Source: a virus
Virus record (IMG/VR): IMGVR_UViG_3300045938_000052
Coordinates: 1-43,000 of that record
Strand: one strand, 5' to 3'
DNA: 43,000 bases
The position numbers and the translations under genes are program-made. Of the stretch, positions 2,498-33,447 are shown piece by piece. How positions within the stretch are numbered: the first letter of the stretch is position 1; every line of letters begins with the position of its first letter. The notes beneath the pieces were generated by a model. That model was not told the DNA's origin. It did not search any database and was given only the letters and a program-made list of their open reading frames with translations.

Positions 2498-4153
2498 TTG
2501 CCCGTGCTGCGCGGCGAGCTGTTGACCGGACGACTGGTCTACCTGGCGGTGCTGAGGCACTACCAGGACCTGCGCGACGGTGCCAAGCGCGGACTGGTAT
2601 TCGTGCCCGCGCACGGGTGGCACGTCATCACCTACATCGAGCGGTTCTTCGTCCACATCAAGGGGCCGCTCGCCGGGCACCCGATCCTGCTCGACCCGTG
2701 GCAGAAGTTCTGGACCGCAGTGCTGTACGGCTGGCGCCGCGTCGACAGCGGGCATCGTCGCTTCACCCGGGCCTACGAAGAGGTCGCTCGGAAGAACGGG
2801 AAGAGCACGTGGAAGGGCCCGCAGGGCGCCTACCTGCAGTCGATGGATGGCGAGATCGGTGCCGAGGTGTATGCGGTGGCCACCACGCGGGCCCAGGCCA
2901 TGACGGTGTTCAAGCCGGCCTTCGACAACATCAAGCGCTGGGTGCGCCGCTCGCCCGGCATCGCACGGTCGTTCAAGGTCTTCTCCGGGCTGAACCAGGA
3001 GAAGGTGGAGATGGACACGAGCGTGTTCGCACCGCTGCCGGCCATGGCCGAGAACCTCGACGGCCTGAACCCGAGCGCCATCCTCTTCGACGAGCTGCAT
3101 GCGCAGAAGACGCGGGATGTGTGGGACGTGATGGAGTCCGCGCTCGGCGCCCGGGCGCAGCCGCTGCTGTCTGCCATCACGACGGCCGGCTTCATCCTCG
3201 ACGGCATCTGCACCGAGGTGCGCGGGTATCTGGTGTCGGTGCTCGAAGGCAAGCGGCAAGACGACTCGTTCTTCGGCTACGTCTACACGCTGGACCCGCA
3301 CGACGACCCCTTCGACGAGCGCAACTGGCCGAAGGCCAACCCCGGCCTGGGTCGGTCGAAGACGCTGGAGTACATGCGCGGCATGGCCCGCAAGGCTGCG
3401 GCGCTGCCCGGCGCCAAGGTCAACTTTCTGACGAAAGACCTCAACGTCTGGTGCAACAGCGCCGACGGATGGTTCGACAAGGACACATGGGACCTTGGGG
3501 CGAAGAAGTTCGACCCGGCCTTGCTGCGTGGCCGTCGTTGCTTCGGCGGCCTCGACCTCGCCAGCACGCGAGACCTGACGGCCTTTGCCCTGATCTTTCC
3601 GCCGGAAGAGTCCGGTGGCCAGTGGTATGTGTTGATCTGGTTCTGGTGCCCGCAGGGCAAGGTCGATGTGCAAGAGCACGACGACGTGGCGCCTTACAAG
3701 CGGTGGGTGGAGGAGGGCTGGTTGACCGCCACGCCCGGCGACGTGACCGACTACGGTCCGGTGCGTCGCACGATTCAGCAGGCCCTCGAGGACTACGACG
3801 TGGTCGACATCGGCTTCGACCGCTGGAACGCGCAGCAGCTGTGCAACGAGATGCTCGAGGCTGGTGTGCCGCTCGTAGAGATCCCCCAAAACACGGGTGG
3901 CATGTACCCGGGCTCACGCAGCCTTGAGGAGCTCGTTTACGGCCGTGGCTTGCGCCATGGAGGCAACCCGGTGCTGCGCTACTGCGCCATGAACGTGGCA
4001 CTTCTGTTCGACACGAATGGCAACTTTCGGCCGGACAAGAAAAAGAGCAATCAGACCGGCCGCATCGACGGGGTCGTTGCACTGGTCATGGCTCTGTCCA
4101 GGGCGTGCGCGCAGCAGGACTACGACAGCTTTTTTGAGAGTTTCGCCAAATGA
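2498..4153 (+). CDS. terL: Terminase large subunit (Terminase_1 type)
   Basis: The 647-aa open frame contains a Walker-A-like motif EEVARKNGKST, plus ILFDELH and a C-terminal nuclease region. The start is uncertain: TTG 2498, GTG 2504, or ATG 2318/2333, which would overlap terS. Confidence 0.9.
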   Translation: MPVLRGELLTGRLVYLAVLRHYQDLRDGAKRGLVFVPAHGWHVITYIERFFVHIKGPLAGHPILLDPWQKFWTAVLYGWRRVDSGHRRFTRAYEEVARKNGKSTWKGPQGAYLQSMDGEIGAEVYAVATTRAQAMTVFKPAFDNIKRWVRRSPGIARSFKVFSGLNQEKVEMDTSVFAPLPAMAENLDGLNPSAILFDELHAQKTRDVWDVMESALGARAQPLLSAITTAGFILDGICTEVRGYLVSVLEGKRQDDSFFGYVYTLDPHDDPFDERNWPKANPGLGRSKTLEYMRGMARKAAALPGAKVNFLTKDLNVWCNSADGWFDKDTWDLGAKKFDPALLRGRRCFGGLDLASTRDLTAFALIFPPEESGGQWYVLIWFWCPQGKVDVQEHDDVAPYKRWVEEGWLTATPGDVTDYGPVRRTIQQALEDYDVVDIGFDRWNAQQLCNEMLEAGVPLVEIPQNTGGMYPGSRSLEELVYGRGLRHGGNPVLRYCAMNVALLFDTNGNFRPDKKKSNQTGRIDGVVALVMALSRACAQQDYDSFFESFAK

Positions 4154-5394
4154 ATTTTCTTCGCCAGGCGATGCTGCGGCTGTCGCTCAAGGGTATGGAC
4201 CTGTCCCTGCAGTCGCCGCAGGGCTGGGACTTTCTCCAGGGTCGGCAGCCCAACTGGGCGAATGTGCGCGTCGACGAGAACACGCAGCTGGCAATCTCCG
4301 CAGCCTTCTCCGCCATCCGGCTCATCGCCGAGACCGTCGGGACGTTGCCGCTGCACCTCTATCGCAAGACGCCGAAGGGTCGAGAACGCGCGACGCGGGA
4401 TCCGCGGTATGCGCTGGTGCACGACCAACCGAACGAGTACATGACGGCCGTCGAGTGGAAGGAGGCGATGTGCGTGAGCCTCGCCTCCATGGGGCAGTCA
4501 TACAACTTCGTCAGCAGCATGGAATCGACGGGGCGGGTGATCAGCATCCAGCCGGTGCACAAGCATCGCGTTAGACCTGAAGTCGTTGCCGACGGCTCGG
4601 TGATTTATCACCTGACGATGCGCAATGGGCAGCCGCTGCCATTGACCCGCCGGCAGATCTGCCCCATCCGCGGGTTTGGCGGGGTGGGTGATCTCGAAGG
4701 CTACGCGCCGCACCAGCTGCACTCCAACAGCCTGGCGCTGACGGTCGCGATCGAGAAGTACGGCGCAGAGTTTTTCGGGGGCGGCAGTCGTCCGAGCGGC
4801 GTGCTGACGACGGAGCAGGAGTTCAAGAAAGACCAGCGCGACAGCATCCGCGATGGCTTCCAGAAATATGTGCGAGAGAGCTGGCTGCACGGTCGGCTGC
4901 CGCTGCTGGAAAACGGCGTGAAGTACCAGGCGGTGACGACGCCCAACAACGAGGCGCAGTTCATCGAGACCCGCAAGTTGCAGATCGCCGAGATCGCCCG
5001 GATCTATCGCGTGCCGCTGCACATGCTCATGGAGATGGACAAGGCCAGCTACGCGAACACCGAGCAGGCCAACAAGCATTTTCTCGACTACACGCTGCTG
5101 TCGTACTTGAAGCGAATCGAGGCGGGTCTGAACAGCTCGCTGCTCACCAATGCCGAAAAGGTCGACCACTACTTCCAGTTCGATGTGCGCGGACTGCTGC
5201 GCGGCGACAGCACGCAGCGCGCCGCGTACTACGTGACCATGCGCAACGCCGGCGCCATCACGCAGAACGAGATCCGCGACCTGGAAGACATGGAGCGCAT
5301 CGAGGGAGCGGACGACCTGCACGTCCCGCTCAACATGGCGCCCAGCGATCTGCTGGCCTCCATCCTCACCCACAAGCAGCAAGGGAAAGAATGA
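4150..5394 (+). CDS. Portal protein, HK97 family
   Basis: ATGA overlap with the terL stop. Conserved portal segments include ...FFGGGSRPSGVL...EAQFIETRKLQIAEIARIYRVPLHML.... Confidence 0.93.
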   Translation: MNFLRQAMLRLSLKGMDLSLQSPQGWDFLQGRQPNWANVRVDENTQLAISAAFSAIRLIAETVGTLPLHLYRKTPKGRERATRDPRYALVHDQPNEYMTAVEWKEAMCVSLASMGQSYNFVSSMESTGRVISIQPVHKHRVRPEVVADGSVIYHLTMRNGQPLPLTRRQICPIRGFGGVGDLEGYAPHQLHSNSLALTVAIEKYGAEFFGGGSRPSGVLTTEQEFKKDQRDSIRDGFQKYVRESWLHGRLPLLENGVKYQAVTTPNNEAQFIETRKLQIAEIARIYRVPLHMLMEMDKASYANTEQANKHFLDYTLLSYLKRIEAGLNSSLLTNAEKVDHYFQFDVRGLLRGDSTQRAAYYVTMRNAGAITQNEIRDLEDMERIEGADDLHVPLNMAPSDLLASILTHKQQGKE

Positions 5395-6034: not shown

Positions 6035-7396
6035 ATGCATTCCCTGCTTTTCCCCACCATCCGCCGCAACCCCGTCCCGTGGGCCATCTTCGGCCTGCTC
6101 GCCGTCCTTGCGGTGCTCGCGCTGACCGGCCAGATCAGCGTTCCCTACGAACTGTTCGCGGCGTCCGTCATTCCGGCGGCGCTGCAGGAAGAGTTCACCA
6201 AGCTCAGCGACGTCGCGAAGGCAGCCAAGACCGCGATCGAAGAGGTCAAGAGCGCCCACAAGGATCTCGACGGCCGCGTCGCCAAGATCCACGACGAACT
6301 CGGTACCGGCAAGACCGATGCGGTGACCAAGTCGGCTTTCCAGTCGGCTGTCGAACGGGTCGACAAGGCCGAGAAGTCGCTCGACACGCTCAACCGCGAA
6401 GTCACCGAGCTCGCGCAGAAGGCCGCCAACCTGCTCAAGCAGCCCGACGGCCGCAAGAGCCTGGGCCAGCTGGCCAGCGAGTCGCCGGCGGCGAAGAGCT
6501 ACAAGGGCGGCAACGTCGAGCTCTGCACGATGGCCGGTCCGCTGTTCGGCAAGGCCGTCAACAGCGGCGCCACCAGCGCTGGCGCGCTGATCGAGGCCTA
6601 CCGGGTGCCCGGCATCCTGAGCGAGCCCGATCTGCCGCCGACCGTGCGTGATCTTTTCACCGCCGTCTCGATCAGCACCAACGCGATCGAGTGGGTGCAG
6701 GAGAAGCTCTTCACCAACAACGCGGGCCCGCAGAACGGCGAGGGCACCAACAAGCCGCAGTCGGACTGGACGTTCGAGAAGAAGAGCTCGGCGGTCGAGA
6801 CCATCGCCCACTGGATCCCGGTGAGCCGCCAGGTGCTGGCCGACGTGCCGCAGCTGCGTGGCCTGATCGACGGCAAGCTGCGCACCGGTCTGAAGATCAA
6901 GGAAGACCTCGCGCTGCTGTTCGGCGACGGCACCAACGGCAACCTGCTCGGCCTGGTGCCGCAAGCCACGCCGTATTCGGCGACCCGCATCCCGGCCGGC
7001 GCAACCAAGATCGATCACCTCCGCTGGGCCTTCCTGCAGGTCGCCAAGGCGCAGTACCCCGCCACCTTCGCGGTGCTGAGCCTGGAGGACTGGGCGCTGA
7101 TCCAGATGATGAAGACGACCGACGGCGCCTACATCTTCGGCACGCCGACGGACGGCGCGGCGCCGCGCATCTGGGGCAAGCGCGTGGTCGAGAGCTTCGG
7201 CATGGACACGGGCGACTTCCTCGCCGGTTCCAGCCTGGCCGCGACGATCTACGACCGCGAGGACGTGACCGTGCGTGCGTCGGAGCACCACGCCAGCTTC
7301 TTCATCCAGAACATGGTGGCGCTGCTGTGCGAAGAGCGCCTGGCGTTCACGGTCGAGCGTCCGAAGGCCATCGTCCAGGGCTCGTTCCCGGCCTAA
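6035..7396 (+). CDS. Major capsid protein, HK97 fold, with N-terminal delta (scaffold) domain
   Basis: A coiled-coil delta region is followed by ...TVRDLFTAVSISTNAIEWVQE...ETIAHWIPVSRQVLADVPQLRGLIDGKL.... The start is uncertain: ATG 6035 gives an odd hydrophobic N-terminus. Confidence 0.92.
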   Translation: MHSLLFPTIRRNPVPWAIFGLLAVLAVLALTGQISVPYELFAASVIPAALQEEFTKLSDVAKAAKTAIEEVKSAHKDLDGRVAKIHDELGTGKTDAVTKSAFQSAVERVDKAEKSLDTLNREVTELAQKAANLLKQPDGRKSLGQLASESPAAKSYKGGNVELCTMAGPLFGKAVNSGATSAGALIEAYRVPGILSEPDLPPTVRDLFTAVSISTNAIEWVQEKLFTNNAGPQNGEGTNKPQSDWTFEKKSSAVETIAHWIPVSRQVLADVPQLRGLIDGKLRTGLKIKEDLALLFGDGTNGNLLGLVPQATPYSATRIPAGATKIDHLRWAFLQVAKAQYPATFAVLSLEDWALIQMMKTTDGAYIFGTPTDGAAPRIWGKRVVESFGMDTGDFLAGSSLAATIYDREDVTVRASEHHASFFIQNMVALLCEERLAFTVERPKAIVQGSFPA

Positions 7397-7476: not shown

Positions 7477-7869
7477 ATGAAAGTCCTGAAACCCTTCAAC
7501 CGCGGCGGCCAGCACTACGCGCGCGGTTCCGCTGCGCCTGCCGACCTCGACAAGGCCACCATCGCGCACTACCGCCGTCACGGCATGGTTACCGCTGAAG
7601 ACGCGAAGGCCGCCGAGGGTTCGAGCACGACGTCGCCTGTCGCGCCCGCACGCAAACCTCGGCAGCCGGGCTCGTCGGAGACCAAGCCGGCCGGTCCGAC
7701 CGAGACCAAGCCGGCCGGTCCGACCGAGACCAAGCCCGCAGCGCCGGCGGGCGCCGCCGCAGGCGACGGCAGCACGTCGGGCGACCCGACGCCGACGACC
7801 ACCACCGCGGCCGGCGGCGAGGGCGGGCCCGACGCAGTGACCGGCATCACGTCCGCATCGCTCGGCTGA
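7477..7869 (+). CDS. Hypothetical protein with Pro/Thr-rich tandem-repeat tail (130 aa)
   Basis: ATG follows AAAGGAAA. The N-terminus is MKVLKPFNRGGQHYARG..., then ETKPAGPT x2.6 and a low-complexity PT/G tail. Confidence 0.7.
   Translation: MKVLKPFNRGGQHYARGSAAPADLDKATIAHYRRHGMVTAEDAKAAEGSSTTSPVAPARKPRQPGSSETKPAGPTETKPAGPTETKPAAPAGAAAGDGSTSGDPTPTTTTAAGGEGGPDAVTGITSASLG
7678..7741 (+). repeat. Perfect 24-bp tandem repeat, 2.6 units (GAGACCAAGCCGGCCGGTCCGACC)
   Basis: Units at 7678-7701 and 7702-7725 are identical. A partial third unit runs to 7741. The repeat is in-frame (ETKPAGPT). Confidence 0.9.
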
Positions 7870-7874
7870 TCACC

Positions 7875-8282
7875 ATGCAGTACTCCACCGACATCCGCGA
7901 CGCCCAGGGCGACGTCATGGAGACCGTGATCGGGCAGTCTCCGCTGCTGCGGGTCTTCAATGGTCCGACGCCGGCCAATGCGGCGGCTCCGCTCGTCTCG
8001 GGCAACAAGCTGCTGGCCCAGGCCACGCTTCCTGCCGACTACCTGACGCCCAGCTCCAATGGCGTGAAGTCCAAGCAGGGCACGTGGACGTTGGTAGGCC
8101 AGCCCGAAGCTGGTTCCGGCACCCCGGGCACCTTCTTCCGCATCTACGACGCGAGCGGCTCGATCTGCAAGGTTCAGGGCACGTTCGGCGTGGGTCAGGA
8201 GATGGTTCCTGACAACAACAGCATCGCGAACGGCCAGGTCTCCACGATCAGCGTCTTCTCGATCTCGCGAGCGAACGGCTGA
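7875..8282 (+). CDS. Hypothetical protein (135 aa), probable virion-associated
   Basis: ORF with GC-rich third positions, tightly packed in the structural operon. No recognisable motif. Confidence 0.65.
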   Translation: MQYSTDIRDAQGDVMETVIGQSPLLRVFNGPTPANAAAPLVSGNKLLAQATLPADYLTPSSNGVKSKQGTWTLVGQPEAGSGTPGTFFRIYDASGSICKVQGTFGVGQEMVPDNNSIANGQVSTISVFSISRANG

Positions 8283-8297
8283 GAAGGAGCACGGGCA

Positions 8298-8774
8298 ATG
8301 GCGCACATCCTTGAGAACCGAGTCTGCGAACTCAGCACGACCGAAGGCGTCGGCGCCTTCGCTCTCACGCCCGCCATTGCCATGCAGCGCTTCGGCGCGG
8401 TCATGGCGGTCGGCGACACGTGCTGGTACGTCGCCTCCGCGGTCAATGCGTCGACCGGCGCCCCGACCGGCGAGTACGAGTACGGAAAAGCGACGTATCT
8501 GGGCTCGAACTCGCTCGGCCGCACCGCGCCCTACGGCTCAAGCAGCGGGGGCGCGGCCGTCGCCTTCAGCGCTGGCTTGAAGCAGATCGCGATGACCATT
8601 TCCGCTCCGAGCTTTCGGACCAACGAAGACTGGTTGCGTGCCCTCGGGATCCTGACATTGCTCGAGGGCAAACAGGACGCAGGCACACCCAGCGACGCGG
8701 CCGTACTGGCCCTCCTTATGAGCGCGTCCACCTTCGCGCGGACCGAAACGCAGCAACTCAAGATCGGCGCTTAA
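8298..8774 (+). CDS. Hypothetical protein resembling N-terminal anchor domains of phage fibre/spike proteins (158 aa)
   Basis: Sequence is MAHILENRVCELSTTEGVGAFALT...GDTCWYVA...GEYEYGKATYLGSNSLGRT...SSSGGAAVAFSAGLKQI. This pattern is recalled from fibre N-termini. No search was possible. Confidence 0.6.
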   Translation: MAHILENRVCELSTTEGVGAFALTPAIAMQRFGAVMAVGDTCWYVASAVNASTGAPTGEYEYGKATYLGSNSLGRTAPYGSSSGGAAVAFSAGLKQIAMTISAPSFRTNEDWLRALGILTLLEGKQDAGTPSDAAVLALLMSASTFARTETQQLKIGA

Positions 8775-8776
8775 AA

Positions 8777-11700
8777 ATGGCTTTCGACCCGCAACTTGCC
8801 GACCTCGACCAACTGCACCAGGATTTTCTTGCTCTACAGGGCACGGTGACGTCGACCGAGGAGACCGTCAACCTCACGCTTAACCAGGTGACCAGCGCGA
8901 TCGCGCTCTGGCTGCCAATCGTGGTGAACGCCGAAGCGTTGGCCGACAGCCTCGACGATGGCAATGGCGAGGTGATTACGCCTCCGCCGGATCCGACGGT
9001 CACGGGCTACGTGATCGAGGGCGACAGCATCGATGCCGGCGGTGGCACGAATAGCCAGTCGTGGCCATCGCAGTTCGCCACACTCACTGGGTTCAGCGTT
9101 CGCAATGTGGCCACACAGGGCGACACGATCAACAGCATGATCAACGGGTTCGACAACCCGGGCGGCATCGGTGCGGCGTATTCGTCCGATTACGACAAGG
9201 TGATCATCGGCGGGCTCACGAACGATATTGCGCTCGACAACACACCACTCTGGCGCCTGAAAGAGCTGCTCTACGGTATTTGCCACAAGGCACAGGCCAA
9301 GGGGTTCAAGAAAATTTATCTGATGACGGTGCCGCCACGGGTGGTGGGCACCTCGATCTGGAATCAGGAAAAGGAAGATCGGCGAATCGCGCTGAATGCG
9401 TCGATGCTCACCGAATTCACGTCCTACGGCGCCGATGGTGTGATCGATCGGACCGCTGGGTTCACGACGGCCGATCTTTTCGATGGCGTGCATCCGACCA
9501 ACGCGGGTGCGTTCAAGATTGCACAAGCGGTGAAGGCGGCCCTGACTCAGACGCAACAGCCGGGCACTATTACGCCAAAGGGCGTCGTCTTTGAAGGTGA
9601 CAGCATCACTGCCGGTACGAGCGGCAATACGGATCCATACCCGGCGCAGTGGTCGCGCCTGACCGGCATCTCGTCGTCCAACATCGCCTACCCGGGTGAC
9701 CAGATTCGCTCGTTACTCAACAATTTCGACTCGCAGGCCGGGCCGAAATTCAACGCCCAGACGTGCGACATCTACATGTTCAATGGCGGGTCGAACGACA
9801 TCAGTGACAACAGCGCCGACAAGAACAGCATCGTCGATGTTATTCAACTGATCATCGATAAGGCGCATACCGCGGGCTTCAAGGTCATTCTCTCGACCAT
9901 TCTGCCGCGTGGTTTCAATGCGGCGAACGAAGCCATTCGGACATCGGTGAACCAATGGATTCGCACGAACTGGCGGAACGTCGCCGAAGGTCTCGTCGAC
10001 TTCGCCGCGGCCATCACCGACACGAGCGGTATGCCTGACGGGGTGCATCCGAGCAATGCAACGGCGGCCATCATGGCGGCCGAGGTGGCGAAAACCTTGG
10101 TTGCTTCGGTCACAGCGGGCGATGTGGTCAACAGCGACGGCTCGCTCAACGAAGCGAACTTCCTTGCCATCGCCAACAACTACTGGCAAGCGTTCGACTA
10201 TCGCTTCGGTGCAGCACCGACCAAGCCCACCGGTGTGCCCACGTACACCGAGCCGGTCAGCCGGTATATGCCTGACGGTTCGCTCACGCCTCCGACTGGA
10301 GGGGACATTCGTTCCTACCAGTTCGGTAATTACCGGGCTGGCTATACCGATTTCTCTTCCAACGAAGAGCACTTCATCTGGGCTCCCGACAACCAGGTCA
10401 AGTTCACTGGTGTGACCGGCATCCAAGGTTCCAGCACTTCGCACGACTGCCATTCTTTCAAGCCTGAAAGCAACTGGGTGCGTTACCTGCGTGGCGAGAA
10501 CCAGCTCAAGGGCGTGGAGGTCGAGTACTGGCGCAATCATGGACAGCCGAATCTGTCTCGCCCCACTTGCATGGGTCGCGCGCACGGTCGCCCCGGTTGG
10601 GCTGTGCAATCTCTGGTTGGTTTCCAAGATGGTTTCATCTGCACCATCGGGGCCAACACGATGTACAACGTGGCAAGCACTCGCCTGCCCGCCGGCATGA
10701 TCCCCACGGACATCGCCATCACATCGTCTAACGAGTTCGCCATCGTGACCTACTGGAGCACGGTGGACAAGCGTGGCGGCATTGCTGTCCTAGCCCTGTG
10801 TGGTCTGGGTCAGAACATGACTCTGGACAGCCCGACGCCGAATCCGGCAAACACCAATGACGGCTGGTGGGGTGAGTGGGAGCATGTTCGTTGGGGTCTG
10901 CACAACCTCGGCAACTTCGCTGGCATCAAGTATCTCGGCAAGTACGAGATCCCCGGCATGCTGGCGCCTACGGCTGCAAGTGCAACGACTGGCTACTACC
11001 GTCGCGGTTACCTCAATGCCAATGAGCCGGAAGGCACATGCGGCAACACAGGTGACTGGCTGCAGAACGAAGCACATCGTCAGATGTGGATCACCGGTCG
11101 CTTCGCCGGACGTTGGGCCAAGCAAGGTGCTGTCGTTGTCATCTCCAAGTCGGAGAAAAAGGCTGCGATCATCAACCTTGAGCCGCTGTTCGAACAGATC
11201 ACGAAGATGTATTTCACGACTCGTGAGCGCTTCTTGGAAACAACGACCTACGGCTATGCGGACAACCAGTATCCGTATGGCTTCGAGACAGTGCCAGCGC
11301 AGAAGCCGCAGTTCGTGAAAATGTTCAACCTGGAAAGCAAGCCGACCGCTTGCCATATGTACAGCTACGGCATCATCAATGATCCGAAGCGTTGGTGCTA
11401 TGTGGCAATGGAGAACGGTTATATGCATACCATTTCAATGGGTGGATATTCCTCGTTCCCTGGGCCAAACGATCCGCCGGATGATCCTTCGCAGGTTCAA
11501 ATCATTGGGCGTACTTTCGTTGGTGCGAACCCAGTGTCAATCAACCAAGTGAAGGAAAAAGCCGGTAACAAGTACGGTTTGCTGCGTGATGAGCGGGATA
11601 CGTTGCTTGTTGCTTCTCGTGCCGAATGCGCTGTCCGTTGGATCGACTTCAATACAGCCAACGGTACTGAGATTCTGAAGCTGCAGGACAGTCGAATCAC

Positions 11701-11929
11701 CGATATCACTCATGCTGAGGATATGGATAACCACGGGACAGAAAGCTATACCGTTGGTATTTCTGACATGAGCGGTGGGTGCATCCGTCACTATGCATGG
11801 GGCGATACCTATCTCCATACAGAGGGTGGTCTCCACTACCCGCTGGTCAATGGCGAGGACTTTAACTATGGCGGTGCTTTCAGCGTGCCGGGCAAGCCAT
11901 TCAAGAACGACAGCGCCAACGTCTCTTAA
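8777..11929 (+). CDS. 1050-aa multidomain protein: N-terminal coiled-coil-like segment, two tandem SGNH/GDSL hydrolase domains, and a C-terminal ~450-aa repeat/propeller-like domain
   Basis: The ATG at 8777 lies 3 nt after the previous stop. Domain 1 has GDSIDAGGG, GGLTNDI and DGVHPT. Domain 2 has GDSITAGTSG, GGSNDI and DGVHPS. The C-terminus is paralogous to 27639-29024. Confidence 0.85.
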   Translation: MAFDPQLADLDQLHQDFLALQGTVTSTEETVNLTLNQVTSAIALWLPIVVNAEALADSLDDGNGEVITPPPDPTVTGYVIEGDSIDAGGGTNSQSWPSQFATLTGFSVRNVATQGDTINSMINGFDNPGGIGAAYSSDYDKVIIGGLTNDIALDNTPLWRLKELLYGICHKAQAKGFKKIYLMTVPPRVVGTSIWNQEKEDRRIALNASMLTEFTSYGADGVIDRTAGFTTADLFDGVHPTNAGAFKIAQAVKAALTQTQQPGTITPKGVVFEGDSITAGTSGNTDPYPAQWSRLTGISSSNIAYPGDQIRSLLNNFDSQAGPKFNAQTCDIYMFNGGSNDISDNSADKNSIVDVIQLIIDKAHTAGFKVILSTILPRGFNAANEAIRTSVNQWIRTNWRNVAEGLVDFAAAITDTSGMPDGVHPSNATAAIMAAEVAKTLVASVTAGDVVNSDGSLNEANFLAIANNYWQAFDYRFGAAPTKPTGVPTYTEPVSRYMPDGSLTPPTGGDIRSYQFGNYRAGYTDFSSNEEHFIWAPDNQVKFTGVTGIQGSSTSHDCHSFKPESNWVRYLRGENQLKGVEVEYWRNHGQPNLSRPTCMGRAHGRPGWAVQSLVGFQDGFICTIGANTMYNVASTRLPAGMIPTDIAITSSNEFAIVTYWSTVDKRGGIAVLALCGLGQNMTLDSPTPNPANTNDGWWGEWEHVRWGLHNLGNFAGIKYLGKYEIPGMLAPTAASATTGYYRRGYLNANEPEGTCGNTGDWLQNEAHRQMWITGRFAGRWAKQGAVVVISKSEKKAAIINLEPLFEQITKMYFTTRERFLETTTYGYADNQYPYGFETVPAQKPQFVKMFNLESKPTACHMYSYGIINDPKRWCYVAMENGYMHTISMGGYSSFPGPNDPPDDPSQVQIIGRTFVGANPVSINQVKEKAGNKYGLLRDERDTLLVASRAECAVRWIDFNTANGTEILKLQDSRITDITHAEDMDNHGTESYTVGISDMSGGCIRHYAWGDTYLHTEGGLHYPLVNGEDFNYGGAFSVPGKPFKNDSANVS

Positions 11930-11947: not shown

Positions 11948-12871
11948 ATGAGCCAAGAGCAACTCGTACAAGCGGCCGCCCAACTGGCCAAGGATCTGCG
12001 CGACACGCGTGACGCGTATGGCGCGCGCGCCGCGGCCGTGATTGCCAGCACGTCGCAATTCCCCGCCAAGCTGGCGGAGTTCTCCAGCTTGCTCACGCGA
12101 TACGAGAATGCGCGCGATCGGATCGAGTCGGCAATGAGTGGTTCGAATCCCGGCACGGGCACCATGCTGGCTTATCTCGATTTCAGCGAGGCTGCCGATC
12201 GTGAGCGTCCGGATAATTGGATCAACAAGGTGCCGACCGGGGGCATCTATCGCAATTACGGGTCCGGCAAAGTGGCCGGCGGTCGAGGTGATCCTTACGG
12301 CCCCTTCCCGGGAATGTCGTGCATGACGGAAAGCGCGACGAATGGAAATATCGCCATTTACGGCGAGGACATCTATTCAATTCCAGATGTCGTGACATTC
12401 GAAAATGCTTTTCGTGCGGGCAACGGTGAGGGCAATATTCTGTCTTTCAGCGACATGGGTGCAATCGAAGGCGATACCTACTTTAGCGTCTACAAAATTG
12501 CGCAAGAGAATCCGGGGAAACGCCGTTTTCGTCTGACTGCAAAGGCTTTCGGCCTGTTCGATGACTTCATTACCGACGAAGTCGACGCATTGATGATGAA
12601 CGGCGAGAGCTGCTACTGGCCGAAAATGCGGCGCGAGGCAGACAACCGCTTTTCGTTGCGTGTGAACGGCAAATACCTCGGCGCCACAGACGTTCAATTC
12701 CCGGGCGTATTGCAGGGGCGGTTCGGTGCATGGGGTCTTTTCCAGCAGGATGGCTTTGGCGTCGACGGCAGCTTCCGCTGCGGCCTGGGCCTGGCCATCT
12801 GCGACAAGCGTTTGGAGAACCTCGGCACCGGCGACTATGCCGTTCCGACCGTTCGTCCCGCCTATCCCTGA
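11948..12871 (+). CDS. Hypothetical protein (307 aa) with helical N-terminus
   Basis: Clean ORF in the lower-GC block. The N-terminus MSQEQLVQAAAQLAKDLRDTRDAYG... is helical. There is no catalytic motif. Confidence 0.7.
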   Translation: MSQEQLVQAAAQLAKDLRDTRDAYGARAAAVIASTSQFPAKLAEFSSLLTRYENARDRIESAMSGSNPGTGTMLAYLDFSEAADRERPDNWINKVPTGGIYRNYGSGKVAGGRGDPYGPFPGMSCMTESATNGNIAIYGEDIYSIPDVVTFENAFRAGNGEGNILSFSDMGAIEGDTYFSVYKIAQENPGKRRFRLTAKAFGLFDDFITDEVDALMMNGESCYWPKMRREADNRFSLRVNGKYLGATDVQFPGVLQGRFGAWGLFQQDGFGVDGSFRCGLGLAICDKRLENLGTGDYAVPTVRPAYP

Positions 12872-12928: not shown

Positions 12929-13417
12929 ATGTTTGCAACGACTCCATTCAGCGCGACGGCATTCGGCAGCGAGGGGGACAGTCTTCAGCCGGATACAGGG
13001 TGGAGGCTCACCATCGTCGATGCGCCCGACGTCGTCGTGGCCGCCGTGCTGGTTCGGAACACGCTGGCGCTCTCCGTTCTCGATGCGGCCGACCAAGTCA
13101 GCGCATCCATGGTCGCCGGTGTCGCGCCGATCGACATCACGCTCGCAGTCCAGGACGAGCCGGACACGCTGCAGTCCGCGTTCGCCGCCCCTGCCGGCCT
13201 GACCCTGGCGCTGAGCGTCGCAGACGCGCCTGACACGCTGCTCGCTGCGGTAGAGCGCGCCGGAATGGCCACGGTTGCGCTGGTCGTGCGGGACGCACCC
13301 GACACGGTCCAGGGGGCCAGCATCGGGGGACGCCTGATCTTCGGCGCGATCCCGCGGTGCCGGCCCGCGCATGCCGGGTCACGCTGCCGGCCGCCCAACA
13401 TTCAACACAGGTGCTGA
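12929..13417 (+). CDS. Hypothetical repeat protein with five D-A/E-P-D turns (162 aa)
   Basis: ATG follows AAGG. GC3 is high in this frame. The motifs are VDAPDVV, LDAADQV, QDEPDTL, ADAPDTL and RDAPDTV, spaced about 20-25 aa apart. Confidence 0.6.
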   Translation: MFATTPFSATAFGSEGDSLQPDTGWRLTIVDAPDVVVAAVLVRNTLALSVLDAADQVSASMVAGVAPIDITLAVQDEPDTLQSAFAAPAGLTLALSVADAPDTLLAAVERAGMATVALVVRDAPDTVQGASIGGRLIFGAIPRCRPAHAGSRCRPPNIQHRC

Positions 13418-13419
13418 AC

Positions 13420-14007
13420 ATGGCTTTCAAGGTCGTCGAGCGCCCAACTGCCGAGCCGATCACGCTCGAGGAGTTGCGCGCCCATCTGCGCCTGGATGCG
13501 AACGGCGAGGTGCCGTCGCATCCGGACGACGCGCTGGTGCTGGGCTATCTCAGCGCCGCCCGCGAGCACGCGGAGCTCTACGTCGGCTTCGCACTCGCGC
13601 CGCAAACGCTCGAGCTTGCGTTGGACGAATTTCCATGCGACGGCGACGCCCTCGAGCTGGAGGGCGGAGAGGTTTCCTCGGTCGCCTCGGTCGTCTACGT
13701 CAGCGGCGCCGGCGAGCTCGTGGCGCTCGATCCGACGAAGTACGTGCTCGATCCATATTCCACGCCTGCATGGCTGCTGCCGGCCTACGGCTCGGCATCG
13801 TGGCCGGAAACCCTGCCGGTGGCCAACGCGGTTCGGGTCCGCTACTCGGTAGGCGCGCAGCCGCTGTCGCCGTCCATCCGCGCAGCGCTGCTGCTATTGG
13901 TGGGCCACCTGTACGAGAACCGCGAGGAGACGTCCGCCGTGCAGACATATGCACTGTCGAAGGGCGTCAATTCGCTGCTGCGCCTCCACCGGCGCATGGG
14001 GGTCTGA
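13420..14007 (+). CDS. Head-tail connector protein (gp6-like)
   Basis: Sequence is MAFKVVERPTAEPITLEELRAHLRLD...ALVLGYLSAAREHAELYVG...LLLLVGHLYENREE, a typical gp6-like signature. Confidence 0.85.
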   Translation: MAFKVVERPTAEPITLEELRAHLRLDANGEVPSHPDDALVLGYLSAAREHAELYVGFALAPQTLELALDEFPCDGDALELEGGEVSSVASVVYVSGAGELVALDPTKYVLDPYSTPAWLLPAYGSASWPETLPVANAVRVRYSVGAQPLSPSIRAALLLLVGHLYENREETSAVQTYALSKGVNSLLRLHRRMGV

Positions 14008-20484: not shown

Positions 20485-23400
20485 ATGAATACTCCCACCT
20501 TGCGCGACGCCGAGCGCTATGTCGGCCGCGCCTATGTCGAGGGCGAATTCGACTGCGCCTCGCTGGCCGTGCTCGTGCAGGCCGAGCTGTTCGGCCGTCG
20601 GATCGATCTGCCGGTGGCCGCCGATCGCCACCGCGGCCGTCGCGGTCAGGCCAGCGACATCCAGCGGCTGCAGCCCGAGGTCGCCGACCTGGTCAGCGAG
20701 CCACGCACGGGCGACGCCGTCATCCTGTGGGCCCTCGTGCCCGAAGGTCTGCCGCCACTCAACCGTCAGTGGCATGTCGGTACCGTCTTCGTGCAGGGCG
20801 GCGAGACCTGGATCCTGCACTGCGCGAACGAAGCGCAGGGCGTCGCGCTCCAGCGCCTCGACCATCTGCTGCAGCTCGGCATGCACCTGGACGGCTTCTA
20901 CGCCTGGCGTGTGGCGGCACCGGCCGCGATGCTGAACCTCGCGATCGCCGCACATCCGCTGACGGGCCAGGTGGAGGTGCGCCAGGCGCTGGCCGGCCGC
21001 ACCCTTGCGGACACCCTGGCGGCTGAGGGCGTCACCGGCACCGGCTGGGTCGTCAGCGTGGGCGGACTCACGGTCCCGCCGGCGCTGTGGTCGAAGACCC
21101 GCGTGCGCGCCGGACACCTCATCGAGGCGCGATCGGTCGTGCGCAAGAAGGCGCTGGCGGTCGTTGCCGTGCTGGTGCTGAGCTACTTCACGTTCGGTGC
21201 GGGCGGCCTCGGAGCGGGCGGGCTGTTCGCCGCCGGCGGTGCGGTCGGCGGCGGGTTCCTGGCTGCTGCTGCTGTGTACGTCGGCGGCTCGATGCTGATC
21301 AGCAAGCTGCTCGCACCGAAGGCGGGCAGCGCCGGCGACAACTCGTCGAACCAGCCCGCGCCGACCTATGCGCTGCAGGGCGGTCGCAACCGCGCGCGGC
21401 CCTACGAGCCACTCTCGCTCGTCCTCGGCTACACGAAGGCGGTGCCGGACAACGCGAACCAGCCCTACACCTGGTTCGAGGGCGACGACCAGTTCCTGGC
21501 CACGATGTTCCACGCCGGCATCAACTGCCGCGCGGTCTCCGAGATCAAGCTGGGCGACACGGCCATCGAGAGCTACGAAGGCGCACAGATCAGCCGCTAC
21601 GGGTTCTCGGCGGGCAACACTGGCGTGCCGCCGATCGTCGGCACCTCGGTCGACAGCGTCGAAGGCGGGCTGCTCGACGCGCCGACCGCGCCGGGCCCCT
21701 GGGTGACGCGAACCAGCAGCCCAGGGACGGTGCAGCTGGGCGTGGACCTGGAGATGTCGCTCAGCTTCCTGAACGAGAAGGGGAAATACCAGACCGCCAA
21801 CGTCCAGGTCGAAGTGCAGGCCCGGCAGATCGGTGAGCCGCAGTGGACGGCGCTCGGAGCACCGGTCTTCCAGAGCAACAGCGCGACGCCGCTGCGGCGC
21901 ACGCTCATGTTCGTCGTGCCGTCGGGACAGTACGAAGTGCGCCTGCGCAAGCTGGCCGACGCGAACTACACCATCCCCGGCGCGAGCAACGTGGTCAGCT
22001 GGTCCGCGCTGAAGAGCTACCAGCCCGACACCGCCGACTACGGCGGCCAGCCACGGGTCAACGTCCGGTTGAAGGCGACCGGCCAGCTCAGCGGCGCACC
22101 CGACGAGATCAACTGGATGGCCTTGGCCGAGACGATGCCGTACTGGAACGGGTCGGCCTGGGTGACGGCCACCGAGCCGGGCGCTGCCGGCGTGAGCAAC
22201 CCCGGTGCGCAGATCCTGATGCTGCTGCGCGGCATCTATCGCCCGAGCGACGGCCGGCTCATCGCCGGCGCCGGCCTGGCCGACAACCGGATCGACATCG
22301 AGAGCCTCAAGGGCTTCATGGTGCGCTGCGCGGCCAAGGGCTTCCGGTTCGACAGCTTCATCCAGCAGGCGATGAACCTGCAGGATCTGCTCGAGAGCAT
22401 CGCGTCGGCCGGCCTGGGCTCGCTGTCGCGGCACTCCGGGCGCATCGGCGTGATCTGGATGGCGGAGGACCAGCCGATCGAGGGCGTCATCAACATGGCG
22501 GCGATGAAGGCCAGGTCGTTCGGTGTGCAGTACGACCTCATGGCCACGGCCGACGAGTACCAGCTCGAGTTCTTCGACGCCGACCGCGGCTGGACCTGGC
22601 AGCCGGTGCGCGTGCAGGCGCCGGGCATCGGCACGCCACAGCGCACCAGCACCGAGAACGTCCGAGGCGTTACGCGCGCCGCGCACGCCGCGGTCATCGC
22701 ACGCTTCGCGATGGGCCAGAACATCTACGGGCGCAAGTCGATCACCTTCGACATGGACCTCGAGCACCTGACGTTCAGGCGCGGCTCGGTCCTGGCCATC
22801 TCGCACGATCTGACCCAGTGGGGATACGGCGGACGCGTGGTCGCCGTCATCACCGGCGCCGGTCAGTTCTCCGTGGAGGTCGACGAGCCGGTGCCGGTGG
22901 CGCTGCCGGCGACCCGGACACTGGGCTTGCGACTCTCGGGCGAGCAGCAAATGCGCGTCTTCAACGTCGCCTCCGTCTCGGCCAACGGCCGCGTGCTCAC
23001 CGTGGCGCAGGGCTGGCCCGGTGGCGCGCTGCTGCCCGGAGTGGGTAGCGCCGTACAGGACACCGTCTGGCTCTACGACTTCAAGGCGACGCCAGGCTAC
23101 CGGGTGCGGGTCACCAGCATCGAGCCAGTCGACAACATGGGCGGAGCCCAGGTCACGGTGGTGCCCGAGTCGCCCGAGTTCTGGAACTACGTGCTCAACG
23201 GCGCCTACGAGCCGCCGCCGAACAACAGCTTGCTGTCGGAGCAGCTGCCGGTGGCCAGCAACCTGCGCATCTCGCGTGCCCGGGTTCGGCAGGGCGAAGG
23301 ATGGGTGCACGAGCTGACTGCCGTGTTTGACGTCGTAGGCAATTACGACCATGCCCAGCTGTGGACTGCCAGCGGCGGCATGCCGCTGTCGCAGGTGGGC

Positions 23401-25877: not shown

Positions 25878-26476
25878 AATTTGCAACGCTCTATGACGCG
25901 ACGACGGGCGTTATCGCTTGCACGACATCGATCCAGTTGCCGCTCGGTGTTGATGCGGATTCGGCAACTGCCGAGCAGTGGGCCGCAGCCATCGCCGATC
26001 TTGAGCAGGCGGCCGGCATGCCCTGCGTGCTCGGCGAGCCGAAGCCGAATCAGCGTGTGCATGCCGGTGTGTTTGTCGACGTCGTCCCGGAGCTCCCGTC
26101 GCTCGAGGACGCGAAGCTCGCGAAGTGGGAGCTGCTGAAGGCCGAACGCGATCGCCGCGAAACGCTGGGCTTCACGTACATGGGCAAGCTCCTGCAGAGC
26201 GATGAGCGAAGCGTGCTCAGGATCAACACTCGGGCGCAGGCTGCGCGCGATGCACTGGGCGCCGGCGATGAGTACCAGACGTACTGGAAGGCTACCGACA
26301 ACTCGCTCCTCCTCCTGGACGCACAGCAGATGGCTGACATGCCGCGCGCCCTGTCCGACTATGCGAACGGCCTGCACGTCCTTGCCGAAGGGCTTCGCCA
26401 GCAACTGCTCAGCCCGGCCACGAGCACTCTTGAGATGGTCGCTGCTGTGCAGTGGCCACCGACAAACCCCCAGTAA
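25874..26476 (+). CDS. Tail fibre assembly/chaperone-like protein (DUF4376-like)
   Basis: Sequence is ...LEDAKLAKWELLKAERDRRE...YQTYWKATDNSLLLLDAQQM...LRQQLLSPATSTLEMVAAVQWP. Confidence 0.7.
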   Translation: MKFATLYDATTGVIACTTSIQLPLGVDADSATAEQWAAAIADLEQAAGMPCVLGEPKPNQRVHAGVFVDVVPELPSLEDAKLAKWELLKAERDRRETLGFTYMGKLLQSDERSVLRINTRAQAARDALGAGDEYQTYWKATDNSLLLLDAQQMADMPRALSDYANGLHVLAEGLRQQLLSPATSTLEMVAAVQWPPTNPQ

Positions 26477-26494
26477 GAAAAGTTCACCCAACCA

Positions 26495-26517
26495 ACCCGC
26501 TTCGGCGGGTTTTTTTA
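26495..26517 (+). terminator. Strong rho-independent terminator after the tail genes
   Basis: Stem ACCCGC/GCGGGT with a TTCG tetraloop, followed by T7. Confidence 0.85.
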
Positions 26518-26534
26518 TGTCCGAAGGAACCACC

Positions 26535-29027
26535 ATGCTCCGACTGAAAACACTTCTCCCGCTCGCCGCGCTTCTGAGCGCTGCGGCGATCGCAGCGCCG
26601 CCGGCGGTGAAGCCCGCTGGCGGGCTTATCGCCGTCGCCTTCGCCAAGTCCACCCACTTCACACTCACCGCGTCGACAACGGTGAGCTATGGCAACGGTG
26701 AGGTCTGGACACAGAAAGATCTGGGAAAGGGCATTTACCGCTGTGGCCCTGACACGTTCGGCCTTGCCTCGTCGGTAGCGACGGGCGGCGAGCAGTGTCG
26801 CTACACCCGCAAGGGCGGCGGTCTGGTCGTCGTCGCGCCGCCGGTCGTCGTGCCCACGCCAGCACCAGCGTTGGTGAAGATCGCGGCAGAGTTCGCCTCG
26901 TTCAACCTGTCCGCGCCGACGATCGTCACCTACGGCCTGAACGGCAAGACCGTGGGCAAGGCGCTGCCGGCCGGCACGCATACCTGCGGCAACGAGACGT
27001 TCGGCAGCGATCCGCTGCCCACCGTCGCGAAGGAGTGCACGGCGCCGGCGACCGCCACTGAGGTTTCACCCAGCAAGCCGGCCGACCCCGTCGTCGTCGC
27101 GCCGGCGCCGTCGACCGGCGCCTCAATCCGCGAGCCCAGCGAGTACCGGCGCGTTGCCGCCCTCATGGGGACGCAGGCAGGCATGGACTATCTCTACGGC
27201 CAGGCGTCGTCGAAGGTGCTCACGAACCTCTACCCAAGCGTGCCGGCCAGCAAGCCGATGAACATGGTCTCGATCCAGAACCCGAACGGGCTGGGGAACC
27301 GCGGCTGCTCCTGGACGGGCTGGTGCGGCACGTCCCAGTTCGGCGAGCTGGAGTACGCCTCCGGCGACTACAGCTCCTCGGTCGCCAACTTCGGCTACAT
27401 CCCGTTTGCCGTCCCGGACCGGACGATCTTCAAAGCCAACCGCTACTGGGGGATCGGTGCGATCCAGCAGATCTCGGTGGCCCACAGCACGTTCTCGGTC
27501 GTGCCGGAGCCGTCCTGGACCGTCTACGAGGGCGAGACGCGCAACAACGCGCACAACGAAGAGCAGCTCATGCGCCAGATCGAGGGCACGGCGGCGCCGG
27601 GCACCAATGGCAAAGACATCTTCGAAGGCAAGCCCGTGGCCTGCGCTCGAGGCTACGGCCGCGGCGGCTGGATCAACAACGTGCTGTGCGTGCAGAGCAA
27701 CGGCTCGATCACGTCGCATGGTTCAAACACCTCGCGCAACAACATGCTCGTGCGGCTGCCGGCCGGCGCAGGCACGCCGACGGCTATCTCCGTCACCAAC
27801 AGCGGCGAGTTCGCCTTCGTGACGACCTGGGACACGGTCGCCTTGCGCGGGAAGATCTGGACCATCGGTCTGAAGGACGCGTGCCAGGACTGCCGTCCGG
27901 AGGACGAGTCCAAGTGGACCGCGAACTGGGGTCAGTGGAACCGCGTCTACGTGGGCTTGCCGAACCTCGGCAACTACGTCGGCGGCAAGGTGCTCGGCCC
28001 GGTCGACCTGCCCGAAGACATCATCGCGCCGACGGCCATCTCGGTGACCACCGGGCGGTCCTCGGAGCGCCATGACGGCTACGAGACCGTGATGCGCCTG
28101 TGGGACGAGCCCATCGACGCCGCCTCGCAGCGCGCTCGCTACTTCGGCGGCGACTTCAAGAACGCGATCGCCAACACCGGTATGGCCGTCGTGATCTCGA
28201 AGGGCGAGAAGCGTGCAGCCTTCGTCGACCTGAAACCACTGTTCACGCAGGCACGCCAGAACTGGTTGGCCTCGATGAGCGACGACGAGTTCAAGAGCCG
28301 GGTCGCCGCCCGTGGTGATGGCGACAGCCAATTCCCGAAGGGCTTCGCGTCCCTGCCGTCGCAGAAGCCGGTCGTCATCAAGACGATGGCGTTCGAGTCG
28401 GCGCCGACGTCGCTGCGCACGATGCTGACTGCACCCTTCCGCAGCGTGATCGGCACGGAGGACGGCAACCTGCACGTCGTCGACCTGGGCGCCAACTACC
28501 TGAACCAGACCAACGCAGCAGCGGTCTCGGGCTCGCCCAGCGACATCAAGGAGCTCTCGACGTTCAACGTCGGCGGCAACCCCACCAGCATCGCGTTCGT
28601 GAAGGGCAAGTCGTCGCAGCGCCCAGACGGCCGCCGCGCGCTGTGGGGTTACGAGAAGGACGACTCGTTCCTGTGGGCGGTCTCGCGCGAGGAGAAGAAG
28701 GCGTCGATGATCCAGTGGAATGCCGACCGCACCGCCTTCTCCGGCGCGTACCTGGCAGTCCAGGACGCCCGCATCAGCGACCCGATCGTGATCGAGGACG
28801 CGGACAACCACGGCACCGAGAGCTACGTGGCCACCATCGGCAGCGGCAGCAGCCTCTTCAACGTCCTGTACGGCCCGATCATCGCCTACACCTACAAGGA
28901 CGCGAAGAAGCCGTTCTGCCAGCCGGACGCGCCCTGCGGCCCGATCACTCCGAAGTCGATCATGTTCGGTGGCGAGTTCAAGGTGCCGGGCAACGTGTTC
29001 TACGTCGGCGGCGGCAACATCAATTGA
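26535..29027 (+). CDS. 830-aa secreted (Sec signal peptide) protein; two Cys-containing N-terminal repeats plus a C-terminal domain paralogous to 8777..11929
   Basis: GAAGGAA precedes ATG 26535. The signal peptide is MLRLKTLLPLAALLSAAAIA/APP. Shared motifs with the paralog are RLPAG..P..I..T.S.EFA.VT.W, VVISK.EK.AA...L.PLF and ED.DNHGTESY. Confidence 0.85.
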   Translation: MLRLKTLLPLAALLSAAAIAAPPAVKPAGGLIAVAFAKSTHFTLTASTTVSYGNGEVWTQKDLGKGIYRCGPDTFGLASSVATGGEQCRYTRKGGGLVVVAPPVVVPTPAPALVKIAAEFASFNLSAPTIVTYGLNGKTVGKALPAGTHTCGNETFGSDPLPTVAKECTAPATATEVSPSKPADPVVVAPAPSTGASIREPSEYRRVAALMGTQAGMDYLYGQASSKVLTNLYPSVPASKPMNMVSIQNPNGLGNRGCSWTGWCGTSQFGELEYASGDYSSSVANFGYIPFAVPDRTIFKANRYWGIGAIQQISVAHSTFSVVPEPSWTVYEGETRNNAHNEEQLMRQIEGTAAPGTNGKDIFEGKPVACARGYGRGGWINNVLCVQSNGSITSHGSNTSRNNMLVRLPAGAGTPTAISVTNSGEFAFVTTWDTVALRGKIWTIGLKDACQDCRPEDESKWTANWGQWNRVYVGLPNLGNYVGGKVLGPVDLPEDIIAPTAISVTTGRSSERHDGYETVMRLWDEPIDAASQRARYFGGDFKNAIANTGMAVVISKGEKRAAFVDLKPLFTQARQNWLASMSDDEFKSRVAARGDGDSQFPKGFASLPSQKPVVIKTMAFESAPTSLRTMLTAPFRSVIGTEDGNLHVVDLGANYLNQTNAAAVSGSPSDIKELSTFNVGGNPTSIAFVKGKSSQRPDGRRALWGYEKDDSFLWAVSREEKKASMIQWNADRTAFSGAYLAVQDARISDPIVIEDADNHGTESYVATIGSGSSLFNVLYGPIIAYTYKDAKKPFCQPDAPCGPITPKSIMFGGEFKVPGNVFYVGGGNIN

Positions 29028-33261: not shown

Positions 33262-33447
33262 ATCCCGCAAAAATCCCGCACATCACTCGGGAACCCGCAT
33301 GCAGCTTGAGTTTGCGTTCCGGCCTCGGGCACCAATTAGCCGGACTCACATGGAAAGAGTGGACGTTTGGCAGCAGGCGGCTACAGTGACGGACTTTCGC
33401 GGGCAGATAGCTCCCCGCGCAGATTCCCGCACACGATCCCGCACACA
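33262..33447 (+). promoter_or_regulatory. attP-proximal array of direct TCCCGCA(C/A)A repeats (candidate integrase arm-type or regulatory sites)
   Basis: Copies occur at 33262-33270, 33273-33282, 33292-33300 (AACCCGCAT), 33411-33421 (degenerate), 33423-33433 and 33436-33447. All are in the same orientation. The last copy abuts the int ATG. Confidence 0.5.

Follow-up and report, generated by a model that had tools for sequence, protein, structure and literature searches.

What role would a temperate phage assign to a protein that holds two esterase domains on a single polypeptide, and where would that protein act? The question is raised by the gene at 8777..11929 (plus strand) of the IMG/VR virus record IMGVR_UViG_3300045938_000052, of which positions 1 to 43,000 were analyzed; this whole 43,000-nucleotide stretch is hereafter called the window. 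The window is that of a temperate lambda/HK97-like siphovirus with a betaproteobacterial host. The gene, recognized from its open reading frame (ORF) and translation, from matches to the Pfam model PF13472, and from an AlphaFold2 (AF2) model, encodes a modular fibre-like protein composed of an N-terminal helix, two SGNH domains, and a C-terminal beta-propeller. We consider it reasonably probable that the product acts in the virion, as a fibre or receptor-binding enzyme, to take O-acetyl groups off a glycan on the host surface. The finding is incremental, because proteins of this kind have been described before, together with the mechanism that probably applies here, and it is the apparently intact tandem pair that constitutes the rare variant.

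Two SGNH catalytic sets on one polypeptide

The 1050-residue ORF is a real gene. Its ATG at 8777 sits 2 nt past the TAA of the preceding gene (8298-8774), its stop codon occupies 11927-11929, and the next gene begins 18 nt after its end, a spacing that amounts to tight late-operon packing. Because the protein start, MAFDPQLADL, aligns with the start of the closest homolog, P0002 (MSFESQITDL), ATG 8777 was taken as the functional start. A longer ORF from a GTG at 8420 was rejected, as it overlaps the 158-residue upstream gene and homologs begin at the ATG. The GC content of the gene is 57.2%, against 65% across the window. The AF2 model of the whole protein has a mean predicted local distance difference test score (pLDDT) of 81, and DSSP applied to this model placed residues 4-58 in a single long alpha-helix of 55 residues, in agreement with the helical N-terminus proposed in the initial annotation. 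Together with a Pro-rich linker (residues 59-72), this helix makes up the putative N-terminal anchor (8777..8992, plus strand), and the protein has no signal peptide. The N-terminal segment shares 47% identity with that of P0023, a protein that itself lacks SGNH, and also resembles those of P0002, P0024, P0006, and P0007.

SGNH domain 1 spans residues 73-261 (8993..9559, plus strand) and SGNH domain 2 spans residues 264-446 (9566..10114, plus strand), limits with which the nucleotide ranges given earlier agree. PF13472 (Lipase_GDSL_2; gathering cut-off, 32.9 bits) matches the whole protein in two separate stretches, and scanning each domain alone yielded 37.8 bits for domain 1 and 53.3 bits for domain 2, the latter also matching PF00657 with 50.5 bits. 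The catalytic motifs are GDSID (S84), QGD (G115), LTND (N149-D150), and DGVH (D236, H239) in domain 1, and GDSIT (S276), PGD (G307), GGSND (N340-D341), and DGVH (D421, H424) in domain 2, where all blocks are canonical. By profile and motifs, both domains are thus assigned to the SGNH superfamily, and the initial claim of two complete catalytic sets on one polypeptide was borne out, with all of the quoted motifs present and both domains above the Pfam cut-off. The blocks of both domains align with the catalytic blocks of Escherichia coli TesA. The whole length of domain 1 can be aligned with a lysophospholipase L1-like esterase of solved structure (9otv), its catalytic residues falling opposite those of 9otv and its GDSID opposite the GDSL of both 9otv and TesA, and the best solved relatives of domain 2 are the carbohydrate acetyl esterases 5b5l, 7toj, and 7tog. 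In a Foldseek search, the SGNH parts of the AF2 model matched carbohydrate esterases, and the alpha/beta/alpha secondary-structure pattern was reproduced.

The argument for activity in both domains is a single and indirect one, namely that both sets have been kept at 36% identity and that the second set of a related protein, P0009, has decayed. Because Ser, Gly, Asn, Asp, and His are retained in both domains at this degree of divergence, purifying selection may have acted on each of them.

An intact tandem SGNH pair is rare. When an SGNH profile was run over 164 members of the propeller family described below, SGNH was present in 8, and two SGNH domains were present in 2. Only the window protein has two complete sets, which upholds the earlier view that the pair is unusual. 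The other double, P0009, is collinear with it (SGNH-SGNH-propeller, 35% identity over residues 80-1050 of the window protein), but its second SGNH domain (residues 381-572; contig L025) is degenerate, with no GDS, GGPD in place of GxND, and DGYL in place of DxxH, which makes it a pseudo-esterase within the same domain arrangement. A tandem SGNH that lacks the propeller is found in P0005, a protein of a candidate phyla radiation (CPR) bacterium. A tblastn search with the whole protein against 50,697 phage records (INPHARED; E 1e-5) gave no match, and, when the query was reduced to the SGNH pair, all matches were weak, to four single-domain actinophage "esterases" and one hypothetical protein. 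A word-based homolog search with the pair returned 6 weak matches, none spanning both domains. No paper was found in a literature text search for the phrase "tandem SGNH," and the described SGNH receptor-binding proteins have, as far as we found, one SGNH each. ReqiPine5 gp21 and Shocker gp30, which were matched in BFVD over ~360 aligned columns and considered as tandem SGNH proteins, were set aside, as Pfam shows one domain in each.

Between this anchor and propeller, the number of SGNH units varies from 0 (P0023) through 1 (P0002, P0024, P0026, P0029) to 2 (the window protein and P0009), and on account of this the esterase may be regarded as a module that can be inserted there. Identity between the two domains of the window protein is 35-36%. 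Domain 1 is the counterpart of the only SGNH of P0002, with which it shares 45-46% identity, and domain 2 is nearest to the SGNH of P0026 (40%). Since the domains are only 36% identical, a recent duplication is excluded, and the tandem would have arisen by an old duplication or by recombinational insertion. The term "duplicated," as first applied to the pair, is therefore apt insofar as two SGNH domains are present and inapt insofar as it implies a recent event, with domain 1 being P0002-like and domain 2 P0026-like.

The C-terminal propeller family and a secreted paralog

The remainder of the protein, residues 447-1050 (10115..11926, plus strand), is a C-terminal beta-propeller of ~600 residues that belongs to an uncharacterised family, as judged by AF2, Foldseek, and profile search. 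The initial annotation had described a ~450-residue repeat domain at this place, a description that the AF2 model and the Foldseek matches replace with a propeller carrying large insertions rather than a simple repeat domain. In the model, the region is built of all-beta blades with a pLDDT mostly between 85 and 97, and Foldseek matched it to 7-bladed lactonase-type, YVTN, and WD40 proteins with target-normalised TM-scores of ~0.55-0.64. No Pfam, PHROG, or NCBIfam model matches the propeller domain. An exhaustive profile search with the domain identified 360 cluster representatives (E<=1e-3), the family being defined by profile A1 and the clusters by 50% identity. In all 150 of the representatives listed (of 360), the propeller is C-terminal, behind N-terminal parts of 0 to ~850 residues. 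Five residues, E653, K718, P833, R948, and D976, are invariant across 122 near-full-length members, which suggests a conserved functional site. The 1050-residue protein is a member of this family, with a full-length profile match and with E653, K718, R948, and D976 present.

Carriers of the propeller are of three kinds: phage fibre-like proteins, exported cellular proteins, and prophage-encoded secreted copies. The fibre-like carriers with an N-terminal helix of the MAFE..V.DL type are P0002, P0006, P0007, P0023, and P0024, and other members have collagen repeats (P0025) or Ig-like domains (P0097) before the propeller. Members from Variovorax and other Comamonadaceae (L004, L026, L028, L029, L011-L019) bear Sec, lipoprotein, or twin-arginine (TAT) signals. 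The cellular members share a chromosomal neighbourhood that includes pepP (Peptidase_M24), NTP_transferase, transketolase, and GAPDH, and in some genomes (L004, L018) the cellular propeller gene is present in two tandem copies.

The window itself encodes a second copy of the propeller, in an 830-residue paralog (26535..29027, plus strand) that is 30% identical to the propeller of the 1050-residue protein over ~580 residues (E 1e-60). Its N-terminus, MLRLKTLLPLAALLSAAAIAAPPA, is a Sec signal peptide, and an intrinsic terminator (26496-26516) lies just upstream of the gene. A longer ORF (26202-29027), read as a 941-residue tail fibre after gpJ, was discarded, since the true start at 26535 lies behind this terminator and is followed by the signal peptide. 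The gene appears to be moron-like, situated downstream of gpJ and of a DUF4376 gene. Homologs of the paralog in a prophage (L001) and in two IMG/VR viral contigs (L023, L024) likewise begin with signal peptides. The prophage of Janthinobacterium that encodes P0002 also holds a secreted paralog, 54% identical, so that the pairing of fibre and secreted copy is found there as well.

A matched pair is conceivable, in which a virion fibre with two esterases of different specificity would take off O-acyl groups of two kinds or at two positions and thereby let its propeller bind or cut the host polysaccharide, and the secreted paralog would remodel or destroy that glycan receptor, but we regard this as decidedly unlikely. 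On such a reading, the propeller would be a new glycan-degrading enzyme family with its site at E653/K718/R948/D976, and the paralog, made from its own transcription unit in the lysogen, might bring about superinfection exclusion or prevent re-adsorption of progeny. The presence of fibre-borne and secreted copies of the same propeller in two unrelated prophages is, nevertheless, the more intriguing lead.

Genomic setting of the cassette

The gene order of the window runs from terminase, portal (4150-5394, upstream of the gene under study; Pfam and PHROG), S78 protease, and HK97-type capsid (6035-7396) through the block that contains the SGNH-propeller gene to the gp6-like head-tail adaptor (13420-14007), a lambda-type tape measure, gpJ (20485-25665), and a tyrosine integrase (33447-34400, plus strand). 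Acidovorax phage Aval has a similar capsid module, and Ralstonia phages have similar terminases. The non-structural region on the minus strand encodes a 476-residue protein with a PAPS-reductase domain (36057-37487), an HD/YfbR-like protein (37594-38262), and a DUF2303 protein (38275-39102). A 21-bp direct repeat (42770-42822; 2.5 copies, 90% match) close to the window's end could be an operator- or iteron-like element.

The SGNH-propeller gene and the 307-residue gene that follows it form a low-GC island at 8.6-12.8 kb, with 51-60% GC against 65-70% in the flanks. Approximately 20 IMG/VR phages share the portal, protease, capsid, and 130-residue gene after the capsid at 63-80% identity, and none of them has the 135-residue, 158-residue, SGNH-propeller, 307-residue, or 162-residue gene. 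Because the downstream modules of these head-module relatives are also unrelated, the capsid-adaptor site is regarded as a mosaic junction. In distant relatives (L056-L059; capsid 34% identical), approximately five genes lie at this junction (e.g., L058, 11300-15750), which by sequence look NeuB-like, CMP-sugar synthetase-like, methyltransferase, and glycosyltransferase-like, that is, of the kind used in the synthesis or transfer of sialic-acid-type sugars. Since distant relatives carry such sugar-biosynthesis and transferase genes there, the capsid-adaptor junction may be considered a cargo hot spot. The gene under study appears to have been acquired horizontally. The initial annotation had stressed its head-proximal position. 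The gene does lie between capsid and adaptor, but the position says little, because it coincides with a GC island, because ~20 relatives lack the block, because the junction holds sugar cargo elsewhere, and because the cassette recurs in tail operons. In a scan for promoters and terminators around the cassette, one hairpin, which follows the capsid gene, was the sole feature to exceed what shuffled sequence would give. The 130-residue gene after the capsid (7477-7869), which is kept in all head-module relatives, contains a perfect 24-bp tandem repeat (2.5 copies, 7678-7736) encoding ETKPAGPT in a Pro/Thr/Ala-rich tail.

We propose that the SGNH-propeller gene and its two immediate neighbors form a mobile three-gene cassette. 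The upstream partner, a protein of 158 residues (8298..8774, plus strand), is a candidate connector or adaptor with homologs directly upstream of the fibre genes in L001 and L005, to which it is 41-47% identical; its C-terminal region has been conserved in all three copies of the cassette. In a single-sequence structure model (pLDDT 40), this C-terminal region was predicted to be helical at that low confidence. By analogy with gp67 of phage Possum (PMC9569702), the protein may serve as a connector. Its N-terminal ~76-99 residues also head 253- and 401-residue proteins in IMG/VR contigs L032-L036. In L035 (9528-15251), that N-terminus lies just past a protein of Pfam family Gp80 (podophage GP4 fibre I) and a gp5-like spike in which lysozyme and peptidase domains are combined. 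The same region of L035 also holds a 1201-residue Ig-domain protein.

The downstream partner, of 307 residues (11948..12871, plus strand; GC 58.4%), consists of an N-terminal helix and a globular domain and lies within the low-GC island. In L001 (23% identity, pairwise E 5e-12) and L003 (30%, E 1.6e-23), the gene that immediately follows the fibre gene encodes a homolog of it, and comparison of the fibre N-helix with the N-helix of the 307-residue protein family gave an hhalign probability of 42%. The inserted block further includes a 135-residue protein (7875..8282, plus strand) that matches phrog_3758, "virion structural protein," and for which Caulobacter phage Seuss and Pseudanabaena phage Pan4 encode homologs in their tail-fibre regions, past the tail genes. 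Comparison of this protein with the Gp80-like fibre protein of L035 showed no similarity. The island and the adaptor gene are separated by an ORF of 162 residues (12929-13417), starting with MFATTPFSATAFG, that has a native high GC content and repeated DAPD.V..AV motifs and is absent from the head-module relatives. The 158-, 307-, and 162-residue proteins have no Pfam, PHROG, or NCBIfam match.

Homologous loci were found in other kinds of phage. A Janthinobacterium prophage of myovirus type (L001) has the order Baseplate_J, 148 residues, 855-residue SGNH-propeller protein (P0002), and 299 residues, and a Mu-like tail operon (L005) has the order Baseplate_J, 159 residues, 681-residue propeller protein (P0008), 260 residues, and Mu gp48. 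In a third phage contig, L003, the structural genes end with a 664-residue propeller protein followed by a protein of 304 residues.

A probable fibre role, its rivals, and known systems

If the product is indeed a virion enzyme, it would be assembled in the cytoplasm as a modular phage fibre or receptor-binding enzyme, with the long N-terminal helix oligomerising the protein and tying it to the virion, probably through the conserved 158-residue upstream protein. The two SGNH domains would strip O-acyl groups, most likely O-acetyl, from a host polysaccharide (O-antigen, capsule, or exopolysaccharide [EPS]), and the C-terminal propeller would bind, or possibly cleave, the same glycan. The cassette would have been inserted in the block between the head and the neck/tail modules of a lambda/HK97-like temperate siphovirus. 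We arrived at this reading because the protein has no signal peptide, a long helix, and a small upstream partner, because its gene is tightly packed in the late operon, and because its homologs lie in baseplate operons. Whether the two SGNH domains provide two substrate specificities or processivity, as was suggested initially, is speculation, for which the survival of both sets at 36% identity, set against the decayed second set of P0009, offers the sole and indirect support.

The domain architecture, the intact motifs, the conservation of the cassette, the compositional island, its absence from head-module relatives, and the baseplate-operon homologs are what the analysis shows; virion attachment, the substrate, and the activity of both domains are inferred. 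Several observations weigh against a virion fibre. Cellular proteins destined for export make up most of the propeller family, and the paralog encoded by the phage likewise bears a signal peptide, so the propeller is not intrinsically a virion module. The cassette occurs in myovirus baseplate operons, at a siphovirus head/tail junction, and, in part, in L003 (fibre and ~300-residue gene), and such different loci are hard to reconcile with a single conserved attachment site. The same junction between major capsid protein and adaptor holds non-structural sugar-biosynthesis cargo in distant relatives. The tblastn search of the 50,697 phage records (E 1e-5) revealed no sequence similarity to characterised esterase tailspikes, and therefore the likeness to proteins of the G7C, Possum, and Aristophanes type is functional and architectural only. 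Finally, domain 1 departs from the canonical block III (its sequence, GG-L-T-N-D, has a Leu in the position of the GxND Gly), and AF2 confidence is low around both nucleophile Ser residues (S84, S276; pLDDT ~50-56).

These last two points bear on catalysis and lend some weight to the notion that only one SGNH domain is catalytic and that its partner, for which domain 1 is the likeliest candidate on account of LTND, is a carbohydrate-binding pseudo-enzyme or a spacer, an alternative that concerns catalysis alone and is compatible with any localisation. The structure prediction called for initially did reproduce an alpha/beta/alpha secondary-structure pattern with esterase matches, but both nucleophile loops were modelled with uncertainty, and the segment 277-284 falls below a pLDDT of 50. 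Domain 1 lacks the Gly of GxND and scores only 37.8 bits, and the second SGNH of P0009 has lost the GDS Ser context, the Asn, and the His, so that a non-catalytic SGNH copy is evidently tolerated in this architecture. On the other hand, both domains keep Ser, Gly, Asn, Asp, and His at 36% identity, and the alignment of domain 1 with a solved esterase covers the entire domain and pairs the catalytic positions; we hold the loss of one activity to be doubtful, yet deserving of serious attention.

The other rivals concern the place of action. A head or neck fibre, decorating the capsid or collar and making the first reversible contact with a surface glycan, is suggested by the location of the gene between the HK97-type capsid gene and the gp6-like adaptor and by a long-helix-plus-globular layout that would suit a head fibre, and neck-anchored fibres of other phages (PMC10966104) offer a precedent. 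However, homologous cassettes lie in baseplate operons, with unrelated head modules and not beside capsid genes, and the position coincides with the mosaic junction and the GC island. Because the ~20 phages with a 63-80% identical capsid lack the cassette, the capsid neither requires nor co-evolves with it. The 135-residue companion, moreover, sits in the tail-fibre region of other phages, and we consider a head or neck fibre unlikely. The compositional island at a junction that holds sugar-metabolism cargo in distant relatives, the occurrence of the cassette in phages of differing tail types, and the predominance of exported cellular proteins in the propeller family would also fit non-virion cargo, namely a soluble enzyme complex that is made late and freed at lysis and would remove acyl substituents, perhaps sugars as well, from the envelope or EPS of nearby cells or debris. 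This appears quite unlikely to us, given that our scan gave the cassette no promoter or terminator of its own and that it is tightly coupled to the late operon. Furthermore, the conserved helical anchor travels with a small partner, as in connector-fibre pairs (PMC9569702), and insertion between Baseplate_J and gp48 is typical of fibres.

An SGNH "esterase" is also encoded between the major capsid and tail genes of Microbacterium phage Shocker and Rhodococcus phage ReqiPine5, where it adjoins membrane-protein and hydrolase genes, and the window gene could by analogy encode a lysis-associated esterase like those of actinophage hydrolase/esterase cassettes. The Shocker and ReqiPine5 proteins, however, have one SGNH and no helix-propeller layout, no holin-like or endolysin genes flank the window gene in the Pfam and PHROG scans, the host is of Gram-negative type (relatives infect Acidovorax and Ralstonia), and the homologs lie in baseplate operons. 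A lysis role is thus very improbable.

SGNH domains are emerging among the commonest enzymatic modules in the receptor-binding proteins of temperate phages, where they are host-range determinants that act by modifying surface polysaccharides and not by cutting them. Two diverged, intact esterase domains on one fibre would provide a natural test of stacked deacetylase specificities, for example on glycans with two acetylation sites or two kinds of acyl group. The protein is, in addition, a handle on a propeller family of 360 clusters that is common to phage fibres, prophage secreted proteins, and exported proteins of Comamonadaceae.

That single SGNH domains serve as polysaccharide deacetylases in phage receptor-binding proteins, as noted in the initial annotation, is established (PMC13123978, PMC9569702, PMC8471582). 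As summarized in PMC9569702 and PMC13123978, Escherichia phage G7C gp63.1 is a virion SGNH tailspike that deacetylates the host O-antigen and is attached via gp66; unlike the protein described here, it has a single SGNH, belongs to a branched podovirus fibre, lacks a beta-propeller, and has no detectable sequence similarity. In Pectobacterium phage Possum, the large fibre gp66 begins with a helical N-terminus and removes O-acetyl groups from the O-polysaccharide by means of a central SGNH domain, and gp67 is a small connector with a helical C-terminus that is proposed to link gp66 to the virion (PMC9569702). The helical N-terminus, the SGNH, and the small partner are shared features, gp67 being our model for the 158-residue protein, whereas gp66 has one SGNH and a different C-terminal receptor-binding domain and belongs to an N4-like podovirus. 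In the G7C and Possum systems, deacetylation of the O-antigen by SGNH enables adsorption (PMC9569702; summarized in PMC13123978). Klebsiella prophage tail fibres with SGNH have been shown to be esterases, and gp41 of the virulent Acinetobacter phage Aristophanes is described as a structural polysaccharide deacetylase (PMC13123978, PMC8471582). These, too, are phage receptor-binding proteins with SGNH, but with a single and mostly C-terminal domain, no propeller, and canonical tail-fibre gene positions.

The exported Variovorax/Comamonadaceae proteins (P0010, P0012, P0018) share the propeller (27-37% identical) and the residues E653, K718, R948, and D976 with the window protein and differ from it in being cellular, in bearing Sec, lipoprotein, or TAT signals, in lacking helix and SGNH, and in adjoining pepP. 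Metagenomic P0009 (1194 residues; Logan ERR10900137) has the same SGNH-SGNH-propeller order, with a degenerate second SGNH, a longer N-terminus, and a 6.4-kb contig as its context. The closest homolog remains P0002 (855 residues, 38% identity), an SGNH/GDSL hydrolase family protein from a prophage in a Janthinobacterium lividum metagenome-assembled genome. It differs in having one SGNH and in sitting after Baseplate_J in a contractile-tail baseplate operon, and it shares with the window protein the same N-terminal helix, an SGNH close to domain 1, a 39% identical propeller, the same flanking genes (148 and 299 residues), and a secreted propeller paralog in the same prophage.

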